Origin: an uncultured Candidatus Saccharibacteria bacterium
GTDB lineage: Bacteria; Patescibacteriota; Doudnabacteria; UBA920
Direction of reading: 5' to 3'
Assembly (NCBI GenBank): GCA_964597895.1
Contig: CAZQZS010000001.1
Coordinates: 81,008 to 145,007, forward strand
DNA length: 64,000 nucleotides
A model generated the notes under the pieces. The model made no database searches. It was not told the origin of the DNA and saw nothing but the letters and a program-made list of their open reading frames with translations. Positions 554 to 53,312 of the stretch are shown here, piece by piece (the first letter of the stretch is position 1; each line of letters starts with the position of its first letter). The position numbers were made by a program, and so were the translations under genes.

Positions 554-600
554 TATCACATTGACTTTAAGATTAAAACAAATTTTTGCTTGGGCCGACA

Positions 601-672
601 GGTGAAGGCGCGACGAGTGTAGCGAGGAGCGCCGTAGCGAACCCCAAGGTTAAGCGAAAATTTGAGAGGAGA
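601..672 (+). ncRNA. conserved structured motif copy A (candidate leader RNA element of rpmF)
   Basis: About 80% identical to 4743-4814; helix ggcGc...gCgcc vs ggcTc...gAgcc covaries; shared core gagtgtagcga...ggttaagc.aaatttg. Confidence 0.3.
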
Positions 673-1642: not shown

Positions 1643-3676
1643 ATGCAACAAAAAGTATTGCTTTGGTTTACAGCATTGGCTGTAGCTATTGGCAGCATGG
1701 CTGGTTTGGCTGTACAGACTGCCCGGGCCGAAGTGGCGGCTCAGCCGATTGTTATTTCGGCAGTTCAAGTCTCCGGAGGGGACGGCTTTGTTAATCAGGA
1801 TTTTATAGAGCTATATAATCCGAATCCGTACCCAATGGATTTAAACGGACATCGATTGGTAAAGCGTTCCGCAAATGGCACTGCGGATAGCTCAATCAAA
1901 TCATTTTCGGCAGAAACAATCATTCCGGCTTATAGTTTTTATCTGTGGGCCAATTCTTCCTGGTTGGATATTGCTGTAGTGCCTGATGCTACAACTTCGG
2001 CTACACTAGCCAACGATAATGGCGTGGCTTTGCGCCAGGGTGCATTAGACACTGGGACGATCATTGATAGCCTAGCTTGGGGAGAAACTAGCAATGGTTT
2101 TGTAACTACAGGTTTATCTAACCCCTCGGGAGGAGAATCTGTAGTCAGGCAAGATTTGTTTGAGAATCTTGGCTATTTTCTGGCTAGCAGCAGCCCGCGA
2201 AACAGCAGTGTTCAAGTGTTGCCAGATCAAATCCCTGAGCTAACCGATAACGCTCAGTGTGGTGTAGAAAATCATTCTGTCCAAGTAGCGCCTGGTCAAT
2301 CCTTGCTGCTGAACCTTAACTTGGTAAATTTAGGAAACACGGTTTGGAGCAGCTCAAATTATTTTGTCCAGCAAAATTATACTTCTAGTGAGCTACGAAT
2401 AAGTTTGGGCAAAGATGTAAATCCTCTAGAACAGATTACGCTTGCTTTAACTCTATCCGCACCCGTACAGATCGGAGAGTACTTTTACCAATGGCAGATG
2501 AATTCTGGAGTACAGCTGTTTGGGGAGGTGTGCTCAATGACCGTGACGGTGCAGGTGGAGGTGCCGGATGATCAACCAGGTAGCCAGGCCAAGACAGTTC
2601 AGATCACCGAATTTCTGCCTAATCCAATCGGGGAGGATAATGGTTTTGAGGTGGTGGAGTTACATAATTTTGGCAATACTGTAATCAACTTAGAAAATTG
2701 GGTTTTAGATGACGTTTTAACAGCACCTTTAAGTTCAAATGCATTTGTCCTGGGAAATCAGACATTGGGAGCAGGGGAATATGTTGCCATAACGATTCCT
2801 TCGGGCAAATTTGGCTTGAATAATAGCGGGGGAGATGGTTTAGGCTTATTTGACCAAGAAGGCGAATTAATCAGCAAAGTTACTTATACGAGCACGGCCC
2901 CAGAAGGTAAGTCGTATAGCTTGATTGGCGGTTCTTGGTACTGGTCAGCGCCAAGCCTGGGATCGGTTAATCTAGAATTGCCGTCAGATAATCCAGACAT
3001 TCCCGATGATTCTGATGACGAAGCACCACCTGTTGATCCTGAGCCTGATGATGAGTCAGTGAATTATGAACTGATAATTTCGGAAATCTACCCAGCGCCC
3101 AAACCAGCGCAAAAGGAGTTTGTGGAGATTTATAACCCCAGCGTTTCATTGGTAAATCTGTCGGCCTACAAACTAGTTATCGGATCTAGGGCACAAGTTT
3201 TGCCTGATGTAGATTTGGGGAGCGGGGAATATTTTATACTAACCGGCCAAGATTTAAAGCTTCCTTTGGCAGATTCAGGGAAATTAATTCAACTGCAATC
3301 TCTTTCGGGCGAGATTATAGATGAAGTTGAGTATCCAAAGGCTCTTAAGGGGAGCAGCTATGCTTGGGCTGAGGATAGTTATGTTTGGACTTTAACGCCA
3401 ACTCCTGGACAAGCTAATCAACTGACTGTGTCTGGTGAGGGTCGCTCAAGCAAGGCTAAGCCTGCCAAAAAAACTGTGCCAGCAAAAGTTGCCAAGCAGC
3501 CCATAGCCGGAGTAAGCGAGACTAATCAGGACAAATTTCCTCAGGAAATTGCTCCAGCTTTAGCTCCTCCAGCCCAACAACCCAAGGCTAACATTATCAA
3601 TGCTATAGCCATTGGTTTTGCAAGCTTAAGCGCTGGTGTTTATGCGCTGTATAAATTCGGAATAGCTGGGCTTTAG
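1643..3676 (+). CDS. secreted/membrane-anchored protein with three lamin-tail-like domains
   Basis: Signal peptide; three repeats of the V.ISE..YNP....EF+ELYN...L.GW pattern (aa about 45, 320, 470); C-terminal TM helix; strong RBS aaaggag. Confidence 0.6.
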   Translation: MQQKVLLWFTALAVAIGSMAGLAVQTARAEVAAQPIVISAVQVSGGDGFVNQDFIELYNPNPYPMDLNGHRLVKRSANGTADSSIKSFSAETIIPAYSFYLWANSSWLDIAVVPDATTSATLANDNGVALRQGALDTGTIIDSLAWGETSNGFVTTGLSNPSGGESVVRQDLFENLGYFLASSSPRNSSVQVLPDQIPELTDNAQCGVENHSVQVAPGQSLLLNLNLVNLGNTVWSSSNYFVQQNYTSSELRISLGKDVNPLEQITLALTLSAPVQIGEYFYQWQMNSGVQLFGEVCSMTVTVQVEVPDDQPGSQAKTVQITEFLPNPIGEDNGFEVVELHNFGNTVINLENWVLDDVLTAPLSSNAFVLGNQTLGAGEYVAITIPSGKFGLNNSGGDGLGLFDQEGELISKVTYTSTAPEGKSYSLIGGSWYWSAPSLGSVNLELPSDNPDIPDDSDDEAPPVDPEPDDESVNYELIISEIYPAPKPAQKEFVEIYNPSVSLVNLSAYKLVIGSRAQVLPDVDLGSGEYFILTGQDLKLPLADSGKLIQLQSLSGEIIDEVEYPKALKGSSYAWAEDSYVWTLTPTPGQANQLTVSGEGRSSKAKPAKKTVPAKVAKQPIAGVSETNQDKFPQEIAPALAPPAQQPKANIINAIAIGFASLSAGVYALYKFGIAGL

Positions 3677-3852
3677 TCAAACAATTTTGCGTGTTAAAAT
3701 GTTCATATCTATGGAATATCTCAAAAAAATCTGGAAGTGGATAGAAATCGGTATAGGGTTTGTAATTAATAGCCTCGGGAATCTCATTCTGCCTGGTTAG
3801 AAAATTTATTTTAGGTATGTTATAATTCAGAAAATCAGTAATTTGATGCTTT

Positions 3853-4164
3853 ATGAGTTTGAACAAATCTGATTTAATTGAGGTTTTGGCAGCCCGTTTG
3901 TCTATCACTTATACAGAAGCCGAACGCATGCTTAATGCCTTTATTAATTTAATCTACGAATCGCTCAAAAACGGCGAGAAAGTTAACATTAGCGGCTTTG
4001 GCCAGTTTAGCGTTTCTCATAGAGCGCCACGCATTGGTGTTAACCCGCGTAATCCTACCCAAAAGATAGAGATTCCAGAATTGAACACCCCAAAGTTTAA
4101 AGCCGGAGAGGCTTTTAAAGAAGCTGTGAAGTTAAGAAAAAATTCTAGCCATATACAAGAATAA
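3853..4164 (+). CDS. hup: HU/IHF family DNA-binding protein
   Basis: 103 aa with HU signature (GFGQFSVSHRAPRIGVNPRNP). Confidence 0.85.
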   Translation: MSLNKSDLIEVLAARLSITYTEAERMLNAFINLIYESLKNGEKVNISGFGQFSVSHRAPRIGVNPRNPTQKIEIPELNTPKFKAGEAFKEAVKLRKNSSHIQE

Positions 4165-4165
4165 A

Positions 4166-4192
4166 TAAAACCGCCGTAAGGCGGTTTTATTC
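4166..4192 (+). terminator. rho-independent terminator after hup
   Basis: aaaaccgcc-gtaa-ggcggtttt hairpin plus T-run. Confidence 0.6.
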
Positions 4193-4230
4193 TAATTAAG
4201 AAAAAAGCACCGAACGAGATGTCTTTTCTT

Positions 4231-4631
4231 TGGAGCGGGTAAGGGGAATTACGCGTCGGCTTTCTGCTGAAAGCCTCCTTGCCCGGGGTTGCGGAAACCT
4301 GCCACTGGCAGCTTTCCGATCGTTCGCTTTCGGTTTTCTCTGCAGAGAAAACCTCAGCTCACTTCAACCCGTTCGATTCCTCTATAATCATTCCAAAGTA
4401 AAAGCCCCAGCTATCGCTGAGGCATTTACTTTGGAGCGGCTAAGGGGAATGTCGCGTCGGCTTTCTACTGAAAGCCTCCTTGCCCGGGGTTGCGGAAACC
4501 TGCCACTGGCAGCTTTCCGATCGTTCGCTTTCGGTTTTCTCTGCAGAGAAAACCTCAGCTCACTTCAACCCGTTCGATTCCGCTAACTCACCAAAATAAA
4601 AAAGTACCAGGCAAGCTGATACTTTTTTATT
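4231..4631. repeat. 200/201-bp tandem repeat (2 copies) ending in the tRNA-Gly gene; each copy begins with a 19-nt duplicate of the tRNA-Gly 3' end
   Basis: tggagcgggtaaggggaat at 4231 and 4432 (1 mismatch) equals the 3' end of tRNA-Gly at 4632; the rest of each unit is near-identical between copies. Confidence 0.75.
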
Positions 4632-4706
4632 TGGAGCGGGTAAGGGGAATCGAACCCCTATCATCAGTTTGGAAAACTGAGATAATAACCATTATACGAT
4701 ACCCGC
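4632..4706 (-). tRNA. tRNA-Gly (anticodon UCC)
   Basis: Manual cloverleaf: acceptor GCGGGTA/TACCCGC, anticodon stem TCAGT/ACTGA, loop TTTCCAA, T-arm AGGGG-TTCGATT-CCCCT, discriminator U, CCA encoded; close to E. coli glyT. Confidence 0.85.
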
Positions 4707-4742
4707 AATCTAATGGTGATCAAATTTCTGCTTGGGGCAAGT

Positions 4743-4814
4743 TGGAGCAGGCTCACGGAGTGTAGCGACGGGAGCCGTCGCGACAACGCAGGTTAAGCAG
4801 AAATTTGTAAGGCA
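4743..4814 (+). ncRNA. conserved structured motif copy B
   Basis: Paralogue of 601-672 with compensatory change in the closing helix. Confidence 0.3.
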
Positions 4815-4883
4815 CAATAATGCGGAAGGTGGAGTGGGTCCGCCAGGGGCGGGCACACGCAACCTGCAGCATTAATTGGGCCG

Positions 4884-4960
4884 TGGTCGGGAACCCGGGA
4901 CTCGAACCCGGAACCTCTCGGTCCCAAACCGAGTGCTCTAGCCAATTGAGCCAGTTCCCG
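4884..4960 (-). tRNA. tRNA-Pro (anticodon UGG)
   Basis: Manual cloverleaf: acceptor CGGGAAC/GTTCCCG, anticodon stem CTCGG/CCGAG, loop TTTGGGA, T-arm CCGGG-TTCGAGT-CCCGG, CCA encoded. Confidence 0.85.
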
Positions 4961-5203
4961 AAGCATGATTGCCTCAAATCTACATATGTTACCGAGCCAC
5001 AGCCATCTAAGGCTAGAGGCACTCGGTGAGTGCACTATCTCTTGGTCTGCCTTGGGCAGAACCCAATTGAGCCAGTTCCCGAAGCATGATTGCCTCAAAT
5101 CTACATATGTTACCGAGCCACAGCCATCTAAGGCTAGAGGCACTCGGTGAGTGCACTATCTCTTGGTCTGCCTTGGGCAGAACCCAATTGAGCCAGTTCC
5201 CGT
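4944..5203. repeat. 121-bp tandem repeat, about 2.1 copies, first copy overlapping the 5' 17 nt of tRNA-Pro
   Basis: aattgagccagttcccgaagc... recurs at 4944, 5065, 5186 with identical units. Confidence 0.8.
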
Positions 5204-5263
5204 CGCACATATACATCAAATACAAGTTATTCTACTAATTTTGTCGTAAAAAATCAAGCTGGA

Positions 5264-5292
5264 TTGACATTTATAGGATTAATCTGTAAAAT
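5264..5292 (+). promoter_or_regulatory. sigma70-like promoter
   Basis: TTGACA - 17 nt - TAAAAT, followed by RBS aaaggagg and ATG 5353. Confidence 0.5.
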
Positions 5293-5352
5293 GATATAAC
5301 TGATTTTAGGTTCGGCAATTGGCCCGTATTTTGTTCAAAGGAGGAAACTAAC

Positions 5353-5886
5353 ATGTTAGGTGGAAGGCAGATCTTTGGTTTGGCGGTTTTTGTTTTTGTC
5401 GTCGTATCGTGGGTCGCATGGTACGATTGGTCGAAGTTTTATAGTTCGGCTTGTGAGGAGTGGGGATCGTCTGCTATTGACTGCAACAGCGAATCCTATC
5501 GTCCTGCCGATAAGGTCAAGCACTTGCACGAGTATGTGCGCAATCCTGGTAATGCCAAAAGTTTTCAGCAGTACCAACAGCTGGATACAAATAGAGTTAA
5601 GTACTCCGCCGCTGTCCTCAAGACAGACAATGGGGTATATTACTTGAACGCTTTTCCAGATTCCCTTCAGGTTTTGTTTGTAAAGAATGGAATGCAAGAT
5701 CCGGAATTTGGCTGGCAGGATTTTGATGCCGACGGCACCATTGATTTTGCCACCAGGAGGTTGGTCGATAAGTCACCTCCAGTAGTCTACGATTCCGAGA
5801 TGGGCTTAAACCGTGACCTTAGACCCATATTCCAAGCTGCTTACTCTATGCACGTAGAGACCATCACTACCAGGCTTGGCCTGTAG
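5353..5886 (+). CDS. hypothetical membrane-anchored protein
   Basis: 177-aa ORF with strong RBS, N-terminal TM helix; no recognisable family. Confidence 0.45.
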   Translation: MLGGRQIFGLAVFVFVVVSWVAWYDWSKFYSSACEEWGSSAIDCNSESYRPADKVKHLHEYVRNPGNAKSFQQYQQLDTNRVKYSAAVLKTDNGVYYLNAFPDSLQVLFVKNGMQDPEFGWQDFDADGTIDFATRRLVDKSPPVVYDSEMGLNRDLRPIFQAAYSMHVETITTRLGL

Positions 5887-5891
5887 GCGTT

Positions 5892-5926
5892 AGCGGTCGT
5901 TGTTAACGGCCGCTTTTTTATTTTGA
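5892..5926 (+). terminator. rho-independent terminator
   Basis: agcggtcg-ttgttaa-cggccgct hairpin and T-rich tail. Confidence 0.45.
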
Positions 5927-6866
5927 CTTTATATTGGTAGATCTCTGCGCAGCTTGCACAAACAAAACTTTAGCTATTTTTAGGCTAGATTATGACTTTT
6001 AAGCCATTTTGCAAGACAATTTGCTCGGCCAGACCTTCAAGCTAACCGTGAATATACCCCCATAATTAGTTGACCTTTTTGGCCAGGTATTTTATAATAT
6101 ATGCACAAATGAAAAAGATTGGTTGCCAATTAAATAGCAATCTCCAAATGCGCAAATAAGCGTATTTTTGCCAAATCTCCGTATTTTGGCAAAAATCTCC
6201 ATATTTTGCGTGTTTTTTGTTACCAAAGTTGGCCCAAAGTAGTAAACATATATACATTAAAAAATCAGCCATTTTTTGTAACAGCTTACTAGTATAGACG
6301 TCTAATTTACCGTAATCTGACAATCCTAGAAACAAACACCTAAAAAATCGAGTTTAGAGTAATGCCTGACAGACAGGTATCACCCTGAACTTGAATTGTG
6401 TCATTCTTGGGCTCTACCCTGAGCTTGTCGAAGGGGAGAGAGCCGGGATCTATAATTTATGGATCCCCGGCCGCCGTCGGCGCCAGGGATGACAACTAAA
6501 GAATTCTCGGGCGTGAACCGGGATTCCACAAGTTCAGTTAGTTCTTTTTAGTTATTGACTCATTTTGTACCGTTTCTCAAAAGGTGACTTACGTATTAAT
6601 CACCGAGGCCGGTTGGTAGTCTGAGTTAGCGTTAGATTCCTTGGTCCTAGATCAGGGAGGCCTATGCAAACTCGCGGCGCTCTTGCAGCGTCCTGCCCAC
6701 CCGTTTTGGCAGTAAGTATCCTTGGTCGAACTTTTGGGAGCGAGCGCGTGCGAAATGAATTATCAATAATCGGTCTATGTTTGAAATAGGCGAGCGTGAA
6801 CTCTAGAGCTCGCTCGAAACTAACAGATATAGCTCGTTAAACCTAATTAATATTTTTTGAATCTTT

Positions 6867-20379: not shown

Positions 20380-20457
20380 ACTGAGTAGCCATCGCATGGA
20401 TTCTACAAGGACCTATCTTTTTAGCCATTTAGATATCTAATTTAAAACAACAGGGTT

Positions 20458-20575
20458 GTCTGCTAAAAGCCTCGTTGATCGGGGTTGCGGAAACTTGCCA
20501 CTGGCAGCTTTCTCGATCGTTCAACGCGAATTTTTCTGCAGAAAAATTCTTGCTTCACTTCAACCCGTTCGAGTC
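20458..20575. repeat. tRNA-associated conserved module, copy 3 (22-nt perfect palindrome gaatttttctgcagaaaaattc at 20528-20549)
   Basis: Aligns with 4255-4380 and 4456-4581; shared ggggttgcggaaac.tgccactggcagctttc.cgatcgttc ... cttcaacccgttcga. Confidence 0.55.
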
Positions 20576-20593
20576 ATTCCTAGGAAAACCATA

Positions 20594-20625
20594 AAAAAAT
20601 TCCGAACAAGTCGGAATCTTTTTTT
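20594..20625. terminator. bidirectional terminator (A-run, hairpin, T-run) between pilus operon and tRNA-Lys
   Basis: aaaaaaa-attccga-acaag-tcggaat-cttttttt. Confidence 0.55.
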
Positions 20626-20627
20626 GG

Positions 20628-20700
20628 TGGGTCGGGTGGGACTCGAACCCACGACCGAGTGCTTAAGAGGCACCTGCTCTACCAGCTGAGCTACCGACCC
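20628..20700 (-). tRNA. tRNA-Lys (anticodon CUU)
   Basis: Manual cloverleaf: acceptor GGGTCGG/CCGACCC, anticodon loop CTCTTAA, T-arm GTGGG-TTCGAGT-CCCAC, CCA encoded. Confidence 0.85.
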
Positions 20701-21716: not shown

Positions 21717-21743
21717 ATTGATGGTGCTCTCGGTAGGATTCGG
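21717..21743 (-). repeat. 27-nt duplicate of the tRNA-Arg(UCG) 3' end, located 204 bp downstream of the tRNA
   Basis: gattgatggtgctctcggtaggattcg is identical at 21717-21743 and 21919-21945. Confidence 0.75.
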
Positions 21744-21924
21744 TCACCTCCCGCTACTCTCCTCTCCTTCGACAAGCTCAGGATCGTCGAGTAACGCTGC
21801 GGCGACCCCCGCCGCTATTGATTGCTCCAAATAGTCGCAACCAATTTCCGCTTGCGCGGAACCGCTCTTTTTCTTATCCTGCTGTGCAATCAATCATTTA
21901 TCATCTACGATGAGAAATGATTGA

Positions 21925-22001
21925 TGGTGCTCTCGGTAGGATTCGAACCTACGACCCCTTGTTCCGAAGACAAGTGCTCTAATCCACTGAGCTACGAGAG
22001 C
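21925..22001 (-). tRNA. tRNA-Arg (anticodon UCG)
   Basis: Manual cloverleaf: acceptor GCTCTCG/CGAGAGC, anticodon stem CTTGT/ACAAG, loop CTTCGGA, T-arm GTAGG-TTCGAAT-CCTAC, CCA encoded. Confidence 0.85.
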
Positions 22002-49761: not shown

Positions 49762-49987
49762 AAAACTCCTTTGTTACATAATTTTGTAACGATTGGGTAA
49801 TGGTAATTGTAACAATCATATGGTAGCTCCGGCTGGGATTGCACCAGCGACCGCGTCGTATCGGGCTTCGCCCGTGCGACGCCAACTTTCGTTGGGTCGC
49901 AACTCAGCTTCGCCGATACTCCTTTAACTTTCTTACTTAACCTCGCTTTACTCGGCCCAAGTAAGAAAGTTGTCCATGAACTCTTGC

Positions 49988-50064
49988 TGGTGGCCTCGAC
50001 TGGGATCGAACCAGTGACCTTGGGCTTAGAAGTCCCCTGCTCTATCCAACTGAGCTACGAGGCC
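49988..50064 (-). tRNA. tRNA-Arg (anticodon UCU), non-canonical anticodon stem
   Basis: Perfect acceptor and T-arm, D-arm identical to E. coli argU, loop CTTCTAA; anticodon stem has G27.A43 and A31.G39 mismatches. Confidence 0.6.
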
Positions 50065-50090
50065 ATCAGCAAGAGTTCATTAATTACTCG

Positions 50091-50125
50091 AAGCCCCTGC
50101 TCTATCCAACTGAGCTTCGGAGCCG
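50091..50125 (-). pseudogene. tRNA-Arg 5'-half fragment (acceptor, D-arm, start of anticodon stem)
   Basis: GGCTCCGAAGCTCAGTTGGATAGAGCAGGGGCTTC is about 90% identical to tRNA-Arg(UCU) nucleotides 1-35. Confidence 0.5.
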
Positions 50126-50167
50126 TGATGCTTATATTATAACAAAAACCGCTGTTTGCGGTTTTCG

Positions 50168-50244: not shown

Positions 50245-50405
50245 ACGTCGTAGTTTTCTTCGGGTTTACGAAATCGGCTAAAGCCAATTTCTACCGCCCT
50301 CCGTAAACTACTCCTGTCACATTCACGATTAACTTCGCTCTGCTCGGCCCAAGTGTGAATGTGGTCTAGAGTAACAACTAAAGAATTATAATGAAAAATA
50401 GAGAA

Positions 50406-52346: not shown

Positions 52347-53312
52347 TTATTTTTTATTGTGAAATTTTTTATGCACGTCTCGCAATTGCTGGTTTGTAAC
52401 GTGAGTGTAGATTTGAGTTGTTGTGATTGAAGCATGCCCTAAAAGAGTCTGTACGCTGCGAATATCTGCCCCATTTTGCAATAAATCAGTCGCGAACGAA
52501 TGGCGAAAGGTGTGCGGCGTAACTTTATGCATGATTCCCGCCAGCATGGCATATTTTTGAACTAACCTCTGCACACTGCGTGCGGTTAGTCCTGGCACTT
52601 TATTATGACCGCCAACGCTTTCCATTTGCCGCTCTACGGTATTGCCAATTTTTGAATGGCTCACAAACAAAGCTGGGTTGTTATCATGCCTTTTCTTTAA
52701 GTAAGACTGAATCGCTCTAATTGCTTCTTCGGACATAAAGGCCAGGCGCAGCTTGTCGCCTTTGCCGCGTACAGTGAATTCGCCGCTTTTAAAGTTTAGT
52801 TGAGTAATTTTTAATTGAACTAGCTCGGAAATACGGATTCCGCTAGAAAACAGCAATTCTAATATGGCGGCATCGCGCAGGCGGTTCATTTCGATCTTTT
52901 CTTCTGCTGTGGCGTCTTTAATGCGCTGGACTTCTTCGTTTGTCATTACGGACACCTCGCGGCTGGGATTCTTGGCTAATTCTATTTTTTCTGCAGAAAG
53001 GGTATTTACGTCTCGTTTAGCCAGGTATTTTAAAAAGGCCCGAACAGCGATTACGTGGTAGTTTTGCGTAATGAGCTTTAAGCGGCGGCCTTTGTCGTCC
53101 TCAAACCGGTTTAGATATAGACGGAAGCTCCGCACGGTATCTAAATTGATATCTTCAGGTCTAAAAATGCCATTTTGTTTGCAAAAATCAGAAAAGCGGG
53201 CGAGATAGTGCCTATAATTGCGGATTGTTAAATCGCTCTTATTTCTTTCTATTTCACAGTAGTCTAGGAAGTCCTGGATGTACTTATCTATTTTTGTTCT
53301 GTTTTCGGCCAT
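52347..53312 (-). CDS. tyrosine site-specific recombinase (XerC/XerD-like)
   Basis: N-terminal SAM-like domain plus HTFRHSFATDLL ... LLGHASITTTQIYTHV catalytic region. Confidence 0.8.
   Translation of the reverse strand: MAENRTKIDKYIQDFLDYCEIERNKSDLTIRNYRHYLARFSDFCKQNGIFRPEDINLDTVRSFRLYLNRFEDDKGRRLKLITQNYHVIAVRAFLKYLAKRDVNTLSAEKIELAKNPSREVSVMTNEEVQRIKDATAEEKIEMNRLRDAAILELLFSSGIRISELVQLKITQLNFKSGEFTVRGKGDKLRLAFMSEEAIRAIQSYLKKRHDNNPALFVSHSKIGNTVERQMESVGGHNKVPGLTARSVQRLVQKYAMLAGIMHKVTPHTFRHSFATDLLQNGADIRSVQTLLGHASITTTQIYTHVTNQQLRDVHKKFHNKK

Follow-up and report, generated by a model that had tools for sequence, protein, structure and literature searches.

The tRNA-Gly(UCC) gene in the 64-kb stretch of bacterial DNA analysed here (hereafter "the window", meaning the whole 64,000 nt) is followed on its own strand by two tandem units, each of which joins a structured body to a copy of the final 19 nucleotides of the tRNA. 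We think that these units are probably RtT-like non-coding RNA modules which belong to the tRNA operon, i.e., counterparts in design of the repeats found behind the tyrT gene of E. coli. This reading draws on the layout of the array, on a predicted fold with extensive covariation, on a closing helix that matches whichever tRNA gene lies next to it and on related units behind other tRNA genes in this and other genomes.

Layout of the array behind tRNA-Gly(UCC)

The last 19 nt of the tRNA (positions 58-76) read ATTCCCCTTACCCGCTCCA in tRNA orientation, and this is the segment that has been copied downstream. The 19-mer TGGAGCGGGTAAGGGGAAT has three sites in the 64-kb window (4231-4249, 4432-4450 and 4632-4650, the last of these within the tRNA), and 100 shuffles gave an expectation of 0.00 chance matches with three or fewer mismatches. 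The elements of the array are as follows, in the order in which they occur in tRNA sense, with the evidence for each in brackets:

4632-4706, minus strand: intact tRNA-Gly(UCC) (ARAGORN; Rfam tRNA model, 62.9 bits)
about 4594-4632, minus strand: hairpin A, terminator-like (inverted repeat I6, fold, sequence reading)
4444-4583, minus strand: unit G2, a type-A structured body with helices P1-P5 (covariance model R1, fold, covariation)
4432-4450, minus strand: middle copy of the tRNA 3' end, ATTCCCCTTAGCCGCTCCA (18/19 against the adjacent tRNA)
about 4392-4435, minus strand: hairpin B, terminator-like (inverted repeat I3)
4243-4382, minus strand: unit G1, a type-A structured body (model R1, TRF)
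4231-4249, minus strand: distal copy of the tRNA-Gly(UCC) 3' end (exact, 19/19)
4197-4230, minus strand: hairpin C, a putative, weak and decayed hairpin after the distal copy (sequence comparison)

The terminator of the HU gene, which is convergent with the array, comes after hairpin C.

A preliminary description of this locus had given its layout as a tRNA followed by two rounds of about 180 nt plus a 19-nt tRNA 3' end, with a full tRNA at the third site only. The 19-mer sites and TRF bear out this layout, and the one full tRNA is indeed the tRNA-Gly(UCC) at the third site, as both ARAGORN and Rfam report. The same 19-mer was said to head all three units, which is exact for the distal copy, but the middle copy has a single mismatch to the adjacent tRNA (G to C). 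The middle copy, TTAGCCGC, is instead of the GCC type, being the exact 3' end of tRNA-Gly(GCC) in two of the contigs listed below (L007 and L029). Its first 8 nt form the P1 3' strand of unit G2 and the remainder forms the tail. The repeat length, described as about 200 bp, holds for the spacing of the 3' end copies (201 and 200 nt in a repeat search), and on 4224-4585 TRF finds 1.8 copies that are 96% identical, with a period of 201. However, a stretch of about 45 nt at the end of each unit nearest the tRNA is unrepeated, the two stretches being different terminator-like hairpins. Because hairpins A and B are unrelated in sequence, the repeated part is about 160 nt, not 200.

The two bodies are 96% identical and match covariance model R1 with similar scores (154.9 bits, E = 3e-43 for G2; 158.3 bits, E = 3e-44 for G1). 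Hairpin A lies directly past the tRNA's CCA, with arms (I6) at 4594-4610 and 4616-4632, an A-tract and a U-tract at its flanks, and one position that is a U·G wobble on the minus but a C·A mismatch on the plus strand. In hairpin B, the stem opens with the TCCA of the middle copy, a G·U wobble is confined to the minus strand, and a terminator-like site lies at 4423-4404 on that strand. Hairpin B also occurs in two strains with 98%-identical HU (L035 and L036). Hairpin C resembles the hairpin directly 3' of tRNA-Gly(UCC) in contig L022.

The sole minus-strand promoter-like site upstream of the array is at 5257-5229, which is upstream of tRNA-Pro and its repeats, and no promoter-like sites were found inside the array. 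The units contain no plausible ORFs, in agreement with the earlier statement that they carry no integrase. A 118-aa plus-strand ORF (4230-4586) is a by-product of the repeat.

Relatives, fold and match to the neighbouring tRNA

Type-A relatives were recovered by exact-pattern scans of public genome and metagenome collections. The genome scan gave 14 matches, three of them real (L001, L007 and L011), and the metagenome scan gave 19, about 11 of them real; the rest were chance matches in GC-rich coding DNA. A scan of 2.9 million viral contigs gave no matches to the units. Including a third body elsewhere in the window (unit K), there are three type-A copies in the window and about 13 in Saccharibacteria/Patescibacteria contigs, so the locus does belong to a tRNA-linked repeat family, one of the possibilities raised in the preliminary description. 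Unit K and the relatives in other assemblies are these:

Unit K, 20441-20578, minus strand: third type-A body in the window (blastn; model R1, 97.5 bits)
L001, Saccharibacteria MAG: after tRNA-Ser(GCU)
L007 (= L018), 496-kb Patescibacteria contig: after tRNA-Gly(GCC)
L011: after tRNA-Gln
L016 (= L031): after tRNA-Lys(UUU)
L022: after tRNA-Gly(UCC)
L023: three units, one of them behind a tRNA gene that a group I intron interrupts
L024: type-A relative
L029 (= L032): after tRNA-Gly(GCC)
L030: type-A relative
L033: tandem units after tRNA-Glu
L043, orthologous locus in a related species (HU 93% identical): one unit behind tRNA-Gly(UCC)

All but a few copies lie 30-60 nt past a tRNA in the same orientation as that tRNA. 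The preceding tRNAs are Gly-UCC, Gly-GCC, Ser, Lys-UUU, Lys-CUU, Glu, Gln and the one with a group I intron; at least 11 related units follow tRNAs, and orientation is identical in all 17 of 17 units. Tandem type-A units occur in L023, L033 and L011 as well as in the window. Unit K, approximately 82% identical to G1 and G2, comes after a hairpin that itself follows tRNA-Lys(CUU) (20625-20700). It is decayed towards its 3' end and lacks a copy of the tRNA-Lys 3' end. A search for exact matches to the HU protein encoded in the window gave none; the protein shares 95% identity with its counterpart in the MAG which yielded L001, which places the host among the Saccharibacteria/Patescibacteria, and strains with 95-98% identical HU differ in their distal units. 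Unit content likewise differs among L035, L036, L040 and L043, whose contigs break inside the array. Relatives of the unit do occur and sister genomes have duplicated tRNA 3' ends as well, so the refuting condition set in the preliminary description does not hold.

A complete unit, read in tRNA sense, consists of a terminator-like hairpin with a stem that starts from the CCA before it, an inverted segment, a body of about 125 nt and the direct copy of tRNA positions 58-76. The inverted segment corresponds to tRNA positions 53-65 in reverse complement, as in AGGGGAAUCGAAC (Gly) and GAGGGAUUCGAAC (Ser). The consensus from 14 aligned units has five helices: P1 closes the unit, an invariant P2 (GGGUUG with CAACCC) encloses hairpins P3 and P4, and P5 comes next. 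Junction nucleotides inside the type-A body are strongly conserved. RNAalifold predicts 44 pairs from the 14-unit alignment, with compensatory changes in 30 of them; in the model alignment, 94.2% of cells are paired (75.5% in shuffles) and 31 of 43 pairs show double changes (17.6 ± 2.2 in shuffles, 6-11 in slid controls), a covariation signal that is the same for RNA and for folded single-stranded DNA.

The two strands differ in how well they pair. On the tRNA-sense strand, G·U combinations outnumber A·C combinations by 21 to 6, hairpins A and B likewise pair better on that strand, and the fold z-score of a single unit is -5.7 in sense and -4.4 in antisense. The G·U bias lends only indirect support to the sense strand being the RNA strand.

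P1 is formed by the copied T-loop/T-stem 3' strand (tRNA positions 58-65) and its upstream complement, and in the predicted fold the copied acceptor 3' strand, discriminator base and CCA make up an 11-nt single-stranded 3' tail. In Gly units the 5' strand of P1 reads AGGGGAAU, in Ser units GAGGGAUU and in the Gly variant of L022 GCGGGAGU. Each complements the copied 3' end beside it, and both strands vary with the neighbouring tRNA. This tracking of the T-arm extends even to orthologous tRNA-Gly(UCC) genes with different T-arms (the window and L022). One body type, 91-95% identical, is joined to Gly, Ser and Glu ends with perfectly matched P1 strands. Point mutation by itself is an unlikely source of such matched strands, so we suspect a templated step. 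The match to the neighbouring tRNA goes beyond what mimicry of tRNA processing would need and points to a templated step at the DNA level; this tells against the RtT-like reading, which leaves that step vague.

The boundary of the copy is constant, at tRNA positions 56-58, and E. coli RtT is no exception. A full copy of the tRNA end is present in nine of the 16 family members, and K, L016, L011 and L030 are among those without one, which suggests that the tail is dispensable for the persistence of a unit. In L043, a 20-nt palindrome lies between P1 and the tail, and the tail is retained.

Type-A units are not the only repeats linked to tRNA genes in the window. Two further cases are:

21722-21924, minus strand: type-B unit (hairpin, body and 19-nt copy) downstream of tRNA-Arg(UCG), 21925-22001
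4942-5202, minus strand: mirror-image array on the 5' side of tRNA-Pro(UGG), tRNA at 4884-4960 (TRF, 100% identity)

The type-B unit has its 19-nt copy of the tRNA-Arg(UCG) 3' end at 21722-21740. Its body is unrelated to type A and is set in the same frame; type-B bodies also follow tRNA-Ser in L001 and tRNA-Leu in L029. The tRNA-Pro array has 2.2 copies of a 121-nt unit, each of which, read in tRNA sense, opens with the tRNA's first 19 nt. This unit is present as a single copy in L034, the assembly of a 99%-identical strain, and is conserved in L043. Partial 5' and 3' tRNA copies are common around the tRNA genes of the window. The tRNA-Arg(UCU) gene, for example, is flanked by partial 5' and 3' copies. 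Of the window's seven tRNA genes, four carry such modules.

Likeness to the E. coli RtT repeats

The closest precedent for the array, absent from the preliminary description, is the set of tyrT/RtT repeats in E. coli. The tyrT repeats and the associated rtT RNA have been regarded as a curiosity from the late 1970s onwards and are poorly understood. To our knowledge, rtT RNA has no settled function. It is encoded by the gene rttR and reportedly derives from one tyrT repeat unit, according to the passage in PMC3318445 that cites Bösl and Kersten (1991); the origin of the rttR/rtT sRNA from a repeat unit is also given in bioRxiv 10.1101/2024.07.17.603846. We checked the E. coli tyrT-tyrV locus on its sequence: it has 3.1 copies of a 178-bp unit, and each unit ends in AATCCTTCCCCCACCACCA, which is the 19-nt tRNA-Tyr 3' end from A58. 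The Rfam RtT model (RF00391) matches four units at this locus. Its consensus has a closing helix of GGGGAAGGAU with AUCCUUCCCC, an unpaired CACCACCA tail and an inner stem that encloses two hairpins.

The window units share this design in several respects. In both systems, the repeats stand in tandem immediately 3' of a tRNA gene and share its strand (178 bp × 3.1 in E. coli, about 200 bp × about 2.1 in the window). Both types of unit end in a 19-nt copy of the tRNA 3' end from A58, CCA included. The closing helix is made of the copy and an upstream complement, leaving the acceptor strand and CCA unpaired, and the inner stem encloses two hairpins in both. There are also differences. The window units are separated by a terminator-like hairpin and have no tpr-like ORF. 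At least seven tRNAs carry the window-type body, each with an end to match, and the frame is shared by another type of body. The host belongs to the Patescibacteria, another phylum than that of E. coli.

Likeness in design does not extend to detectable similarity in sequence. Rfam searches, at E ≤ 10 for the region and across the whole window, returned tRNAs only, with no ribozyme, riboswitch, tmRNA, Y RNA or RtT. RF00391 in particular had no match at E ≤ 10 in 3500-6000, and nothing in the whole window reached its gathering threshold (45 bits). In the reverse comparison, model R1 ranked the four RtT units first to fourth among its matches at the E. coli locus, all on the correct strand, but with scores of 5.7-9.4 bits and E no better than 0.033, which is suggestive at most. 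As there is no significant cross-match between RF00391 and R1, we class the window units as working like RtT and not as members of RF00391. The published literature that we searched holds no account of such units in Patescibacteria.

A looser parallel is provided by rrA, rrB and rrF, which are read-through sRNAs between the dual terminators of rRNA operons (PMC8144298). Like the RNAs proposed for the window units, these are small RNAs made by read-through past the first terminator of a stable-RNA operon; however, their sequence is unrelated, they contain no copied upstream 3' end and they do not form tandem arrays.

If the window units are RtT-like modules of the tRNA operon, the array would be transcribed from the promoter upstream of tRNA-Pro, with transcription reading through the hairpins. 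Since each unit ends like a tRNA, the enzymes of tRNA 3'-end maturation could cut or trim it at the CCA, and unit-length RNAs may be released by analogy with what is reported for E. coli rtT RNA. The most likely class for the released RNA would be a mimic of the 3' end of uncharged tRNA. Changes in copy number and movement of modules between tRNA loci may result from recombination at the 19-26-nt tRNA-end repeats, the hairpins and the bodies. Exchange among loci at the DNA level is supported by several features of the sequences: the GCC-type middle copy, a hairpin sequence common to the trailers of the window's tRNA-Lys and the L029 tRNA-Gly, body types mixed within one array (type A then type B in L001, and also a mixture in L043) and distal units that differ between strains.

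Alternative explanations

Islands and CIMEs that integrate into tRNA genes have direct repeats of 15-25 nt from the tRNA 3' end flanking the insert, and internal att-like copies when in tandem. The preliminary description put forward serial site-specific integration into a tRNA 3' end, with a miniature element among its candidates. In its CIME-like form, i.e., an att-flanked unit of about 200 bp that uses a tyrosine recombinase in trans and accretes serially into the tRNA 3' end, we consider this reading unlikely, though it is the most probable of the alternatives. The general likeness is plain: tRNA 3' direct repeats bracket the units like attL and attR, the arrays are tandem and units differ within an array. 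The signs of exchange listed above speak for integration as well, namely the heterogeneous arrays, the variation in unit content between close strains, the hairpin module shared by two tRNA trailers and the middle copy, whose tRNA-Gly(GCC) type suggests a unit from another locus. In addition, the hairpin closest to the tRNA-proximal hairpin of L022 sits distal to the window array, and the genome does encode a tyrosine recombinase.

Other findings tell against this reading. The preliminary description had pointed to a Xer-like gene at 52347-53312, and the gene is present, but it has an ordinary XerC/D-type layout (SAM-like and catalytic domains) and lies between the Dus and PNPase genes, among housekeeping genes and 48 kb from the array, and we found no link between the two. 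It is the only recombinase that we found, and there is no integrase in or adjoining any array examined. A unit of about 180 nt that is free of genes differs from a CIME, and viral contigs gave no matches. The CIME-like reading also leaves unexplained the multi-helix, RNA-type fold conserved in the body, its conserved junction nucleotides, the G·U bias and the inverted complement of the att-like repeat, which co-varies with the tRNA; a leftover attR would lack this complement. The common orientation of all 17 units and the copy boundary fixed at positions 56-58, even in E. coli RtT, tell against it too, and no clean pair of empty and occupied sites was found. What stands of the preliminary description is therefore its observation, layout, repeat family and some DNA shuffling, but not integration as the main explanation.

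A more far-reaching proposal, which we regard as rather doubtful, keeps the structured RNA and adds a route for its spread. RtT-type modules of E. coli and Patescibacteria would then be one class of non-autonomous element that colonises tRNA genes in a templated, T-loop-directed manner, each insertion writing the 3' end of the host tRNA, as a direct and as an inverted copy, around a structured RNA that it carries as cargo. As a candidate route, a housekeeping enzyme of the Xer type would recombine a folded single strand.

Single-stranded-DNA hairpin elements (of the CTXphi/IMEX, REPIN or IS200/IS605 kind) offer another explanation, in which a stem formed in the folded strand by the upstream complement and the tRNA-end copy mimics the 3' duplex of the tRNA gene and is used by a Xer or HUH enzyme; we judge this improbable. 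On anatomical reasoning, the order of tRNA end, hairpin, inverted copy, body and direct copy is what a CTXphi-type event would leave behind. The tRNA-end copy, hairpin and inverted copy together make an imperfect palindrome of 75-85 nt (I1, I3), and the covariation fits folded single-stranded DNA equally well. CTXphi IMEX and integron attC arrays similarly alternate structured bodies with imperfect palindromic joints and use a stem that mimics the target duplex. However, the window joints are tRNA-specific, not generic, and do not fit the attC R-box: the palindrome ends GTTCGA...TCGAAC depart from attC (RYYYAAC...GTTRRRY) in both polarity and sequence. No Rep, TnpA, RAYT-like or intI genes were found among the 10 window ORFs scanned. 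The conserved junction nucleotides of the body are more typical of RNA tertiary structure, and an element of this kind gives no account of how stems could be re-matched to new tRNAs without being broken.

There is also only a slim chance that the units are neutral debris, i.e., functionless, decayed partial copies of tRNA genes that tandem duplications broken within the T-loop left behind. In E. coli, the RtT unit minus its last 19 nt shows weak colinearity with tRNA-Tyr (p about 0.04 in a semi-global alignment), the 5' flank of G1 agrees with tRNA-Gly positions 40-53 at 10 of 12 bases, and partial tRNA copies are, as noted, common in the window. Against this, the colinearity of the window units with tRNA is non-significant (p = 0.28 and 0.16), and four helices show compensatory evolution and the junctions are invariant despite up to about 35% divergence and at least seven tRNA species. 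Moreover, the units are kept in very small CPR genomes.

An assembly artefact caused by repeat threading in metagenome assembly can very nearly be dismissed: the tRNA-Pro units are identical in the window and reduced to one in a near-identical strain's assembly, and short-read contigs carrying the neighbouring HU gene all break 20-155 nt after it (as expected, since the array is a repeat), but the two Gly units are 4% apart and flanked by different hairpins, the architecture recurs in independent assemblies of other species (L043, L007, L029, L033 and L022) and the E. coli precedent comes from finished genomes.

Several narrower candidates were tried and rejected. A unit is not a pseudo-tRNA whose 5' flank is a direct copy of positions 38-53: the best case (G1, 10/12) has p = 0.16, and the only reading of the 5' flank that is significant, in several units, is the inverted one that forms P1. 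Colinearity of the whole unit with tRNA is weak for E. coli RtT and non-significant for G1 (the p of 0.28 above). The joints are not integron attC sites, being of opposite polarity with one mismatch, and no intI was among the ORFs scanned. A TnpB/IscB scaffold-plus-guide RNA or a bridge RNA would have half of its guide paired in P1 and would target the cell's own tRNA gene, and no such protein gene is nearby. An invertible segment does not fit the single orientation of the units.

Implications

The design of what was a single-locus curiosity in E. coli recurs in ultra-small Patescibacteria with a new sequence, on many tRNAs and with at least two unrelated bodies. What these cases have in common is a frame in which a copied tRNA T-stem strand closes a structured RNA, while the acceptor strand and CCA form the tail. 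Recurrence across phyla, tRNAs and bodies argues that this frame is selected or actively generated, and is not one enterobacterial accident.

The type-A family is absent from Rfam and is diverse enough for its structure to be approached through covariation. It may therefore serve to test ideas that bear on RtT as well, e.g., whether mimicry of the tRNA 3' end plays a part in processing, CCA addition or the sensing of uncharged tRNA, and how repeats of tRNA ends originate. If the templated-colonisation proposal were true, these modules would represent a new kind of mobile RNA-gene cassette that targets tRNA genes.

Repeats on the 5' side of tRNA genes

The tRNA-Pro(UGG) gene carries an array on its 5' side that is the mirror image of the 3'-side array of the tRNA-Gly gene:

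4942-5202, minus strand: 5'-side repeat array of tRNA-Pro(UGG), the tRNA itself lying at 4884-4960

The array consists of a 121-nt unit repeated 2.2 times with 100% identity between copies, each unit starting (in tRNA orientation) with the first 19 nt of the tRNA and carrying tRNA positions 18-32 as an inverted copy. A strain contig that is 99% identical (L034) has a single copy of the unit, versus 2.2 in the window, and a related species keeps the unit core at its orthologous locus (L043, 3800-3879). Partial copies also surround a second tRNA gene:

49820-50130, minus strand: tRNA-Arg(UCU) with partial copies, gene at 49988-50064

Here, a 31-nt partial copy of the 5' end (~85% identical) lies ~25 nt upstream of the gene, and a diverged 3'-end copy (15/19 identical) lies ~170 nt downstream, beside a T-arm-like hairpin.

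A second structured body and a small hairpin motif

Type B is a second conserved structured body, with the sequence pattern ...GCGACTATTTGGAGC...GGGGTCGCCGCAGCG...GCGGGAGGTGACCG, and it occurs in three units:

window 21722-21924, minus strand: after tRNA-Arg(UCG)
L001 (a Saccharibacteria MAG) 6612-6805: after tRNA-Ser
L029 4432-4612: after tRNA-Leu(GAG)

In each, a hairpin is followed by the body and then by a 19-nt 3'-end copy of the preceding tRNA. Compensatory changes were found in 14 of the 40 predicted pairs, a count drawn from only three sequences.

A smaller hairpin motif, of the form stem-CTTGGGCCGAG...GGTTAAG-stem, is repeated in the window:

579-664, plus strand: site 1
4721-4810, plus strand: site 2
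~50325-50372, minus strand: site 3
~49935-49985, minus strand: site 4

At three of these four sites the motif is followed by a leader, AGGAG-stem...stem-GACGAC, which adjoins the 5' end of tRNA-Arg(GCG), the rpmF ATG (739) and a partial tRNA-like 3' fragment (~49822-49842), at one site each. Leaders of this design also precede tRNA-Ser in L001 and tRNA-Phe in L007 (a Patescibacteria contig). Neither motif nor leader had an Rfam match.

Coding potential and strain variation of the Gly array

One ORF runs antisense through both Gly units:

4230-4586, plus strand: 118-aa ORF with a TTG start

It is repetitive, lacks support as a gene and probably arose as a side effect of the repeat. On the sense strand, nothing equivalent to the tpr ORF of E. 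coli was seen.

Contigs with close homologues of HU, the convergent gene beyond the distal end of the array, comprise L035-L042. The short-read contigs among them all stop 20-155 nt past the HU gene, i.e., inside the array, and distal units differ or are truncated in strains whose HU is 95-98% identical.

Relatives in other genomes

In L043 (3213-3262), the tRNA-Gly end copy is broken precisely where the T-stem strand meets the acceptor strand, and a 20-nt perfect palindrome (GCCTGCCGGCAGGC-like) lies in the gap. ARAGORN missed the tRNA ahead of unit L023a (L023 5134-5459) because it is split by an intron of group I (59 bits to Rfam RF00028). This agrees with a report that group I introns are abundant in the tRNAs of Patescibacteria (PMC13011429). 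A 9.6-kb contig from an Acidobacteriaceae bin (L011, JBLMZH010000076.1) carries two units with the type-A body, the five-helix structure of the Gly units, downstream of tRNA-Gln. Either this is a mis-binned Patescibacteria contig or the type-A family reaches beyond Patescibacteria.
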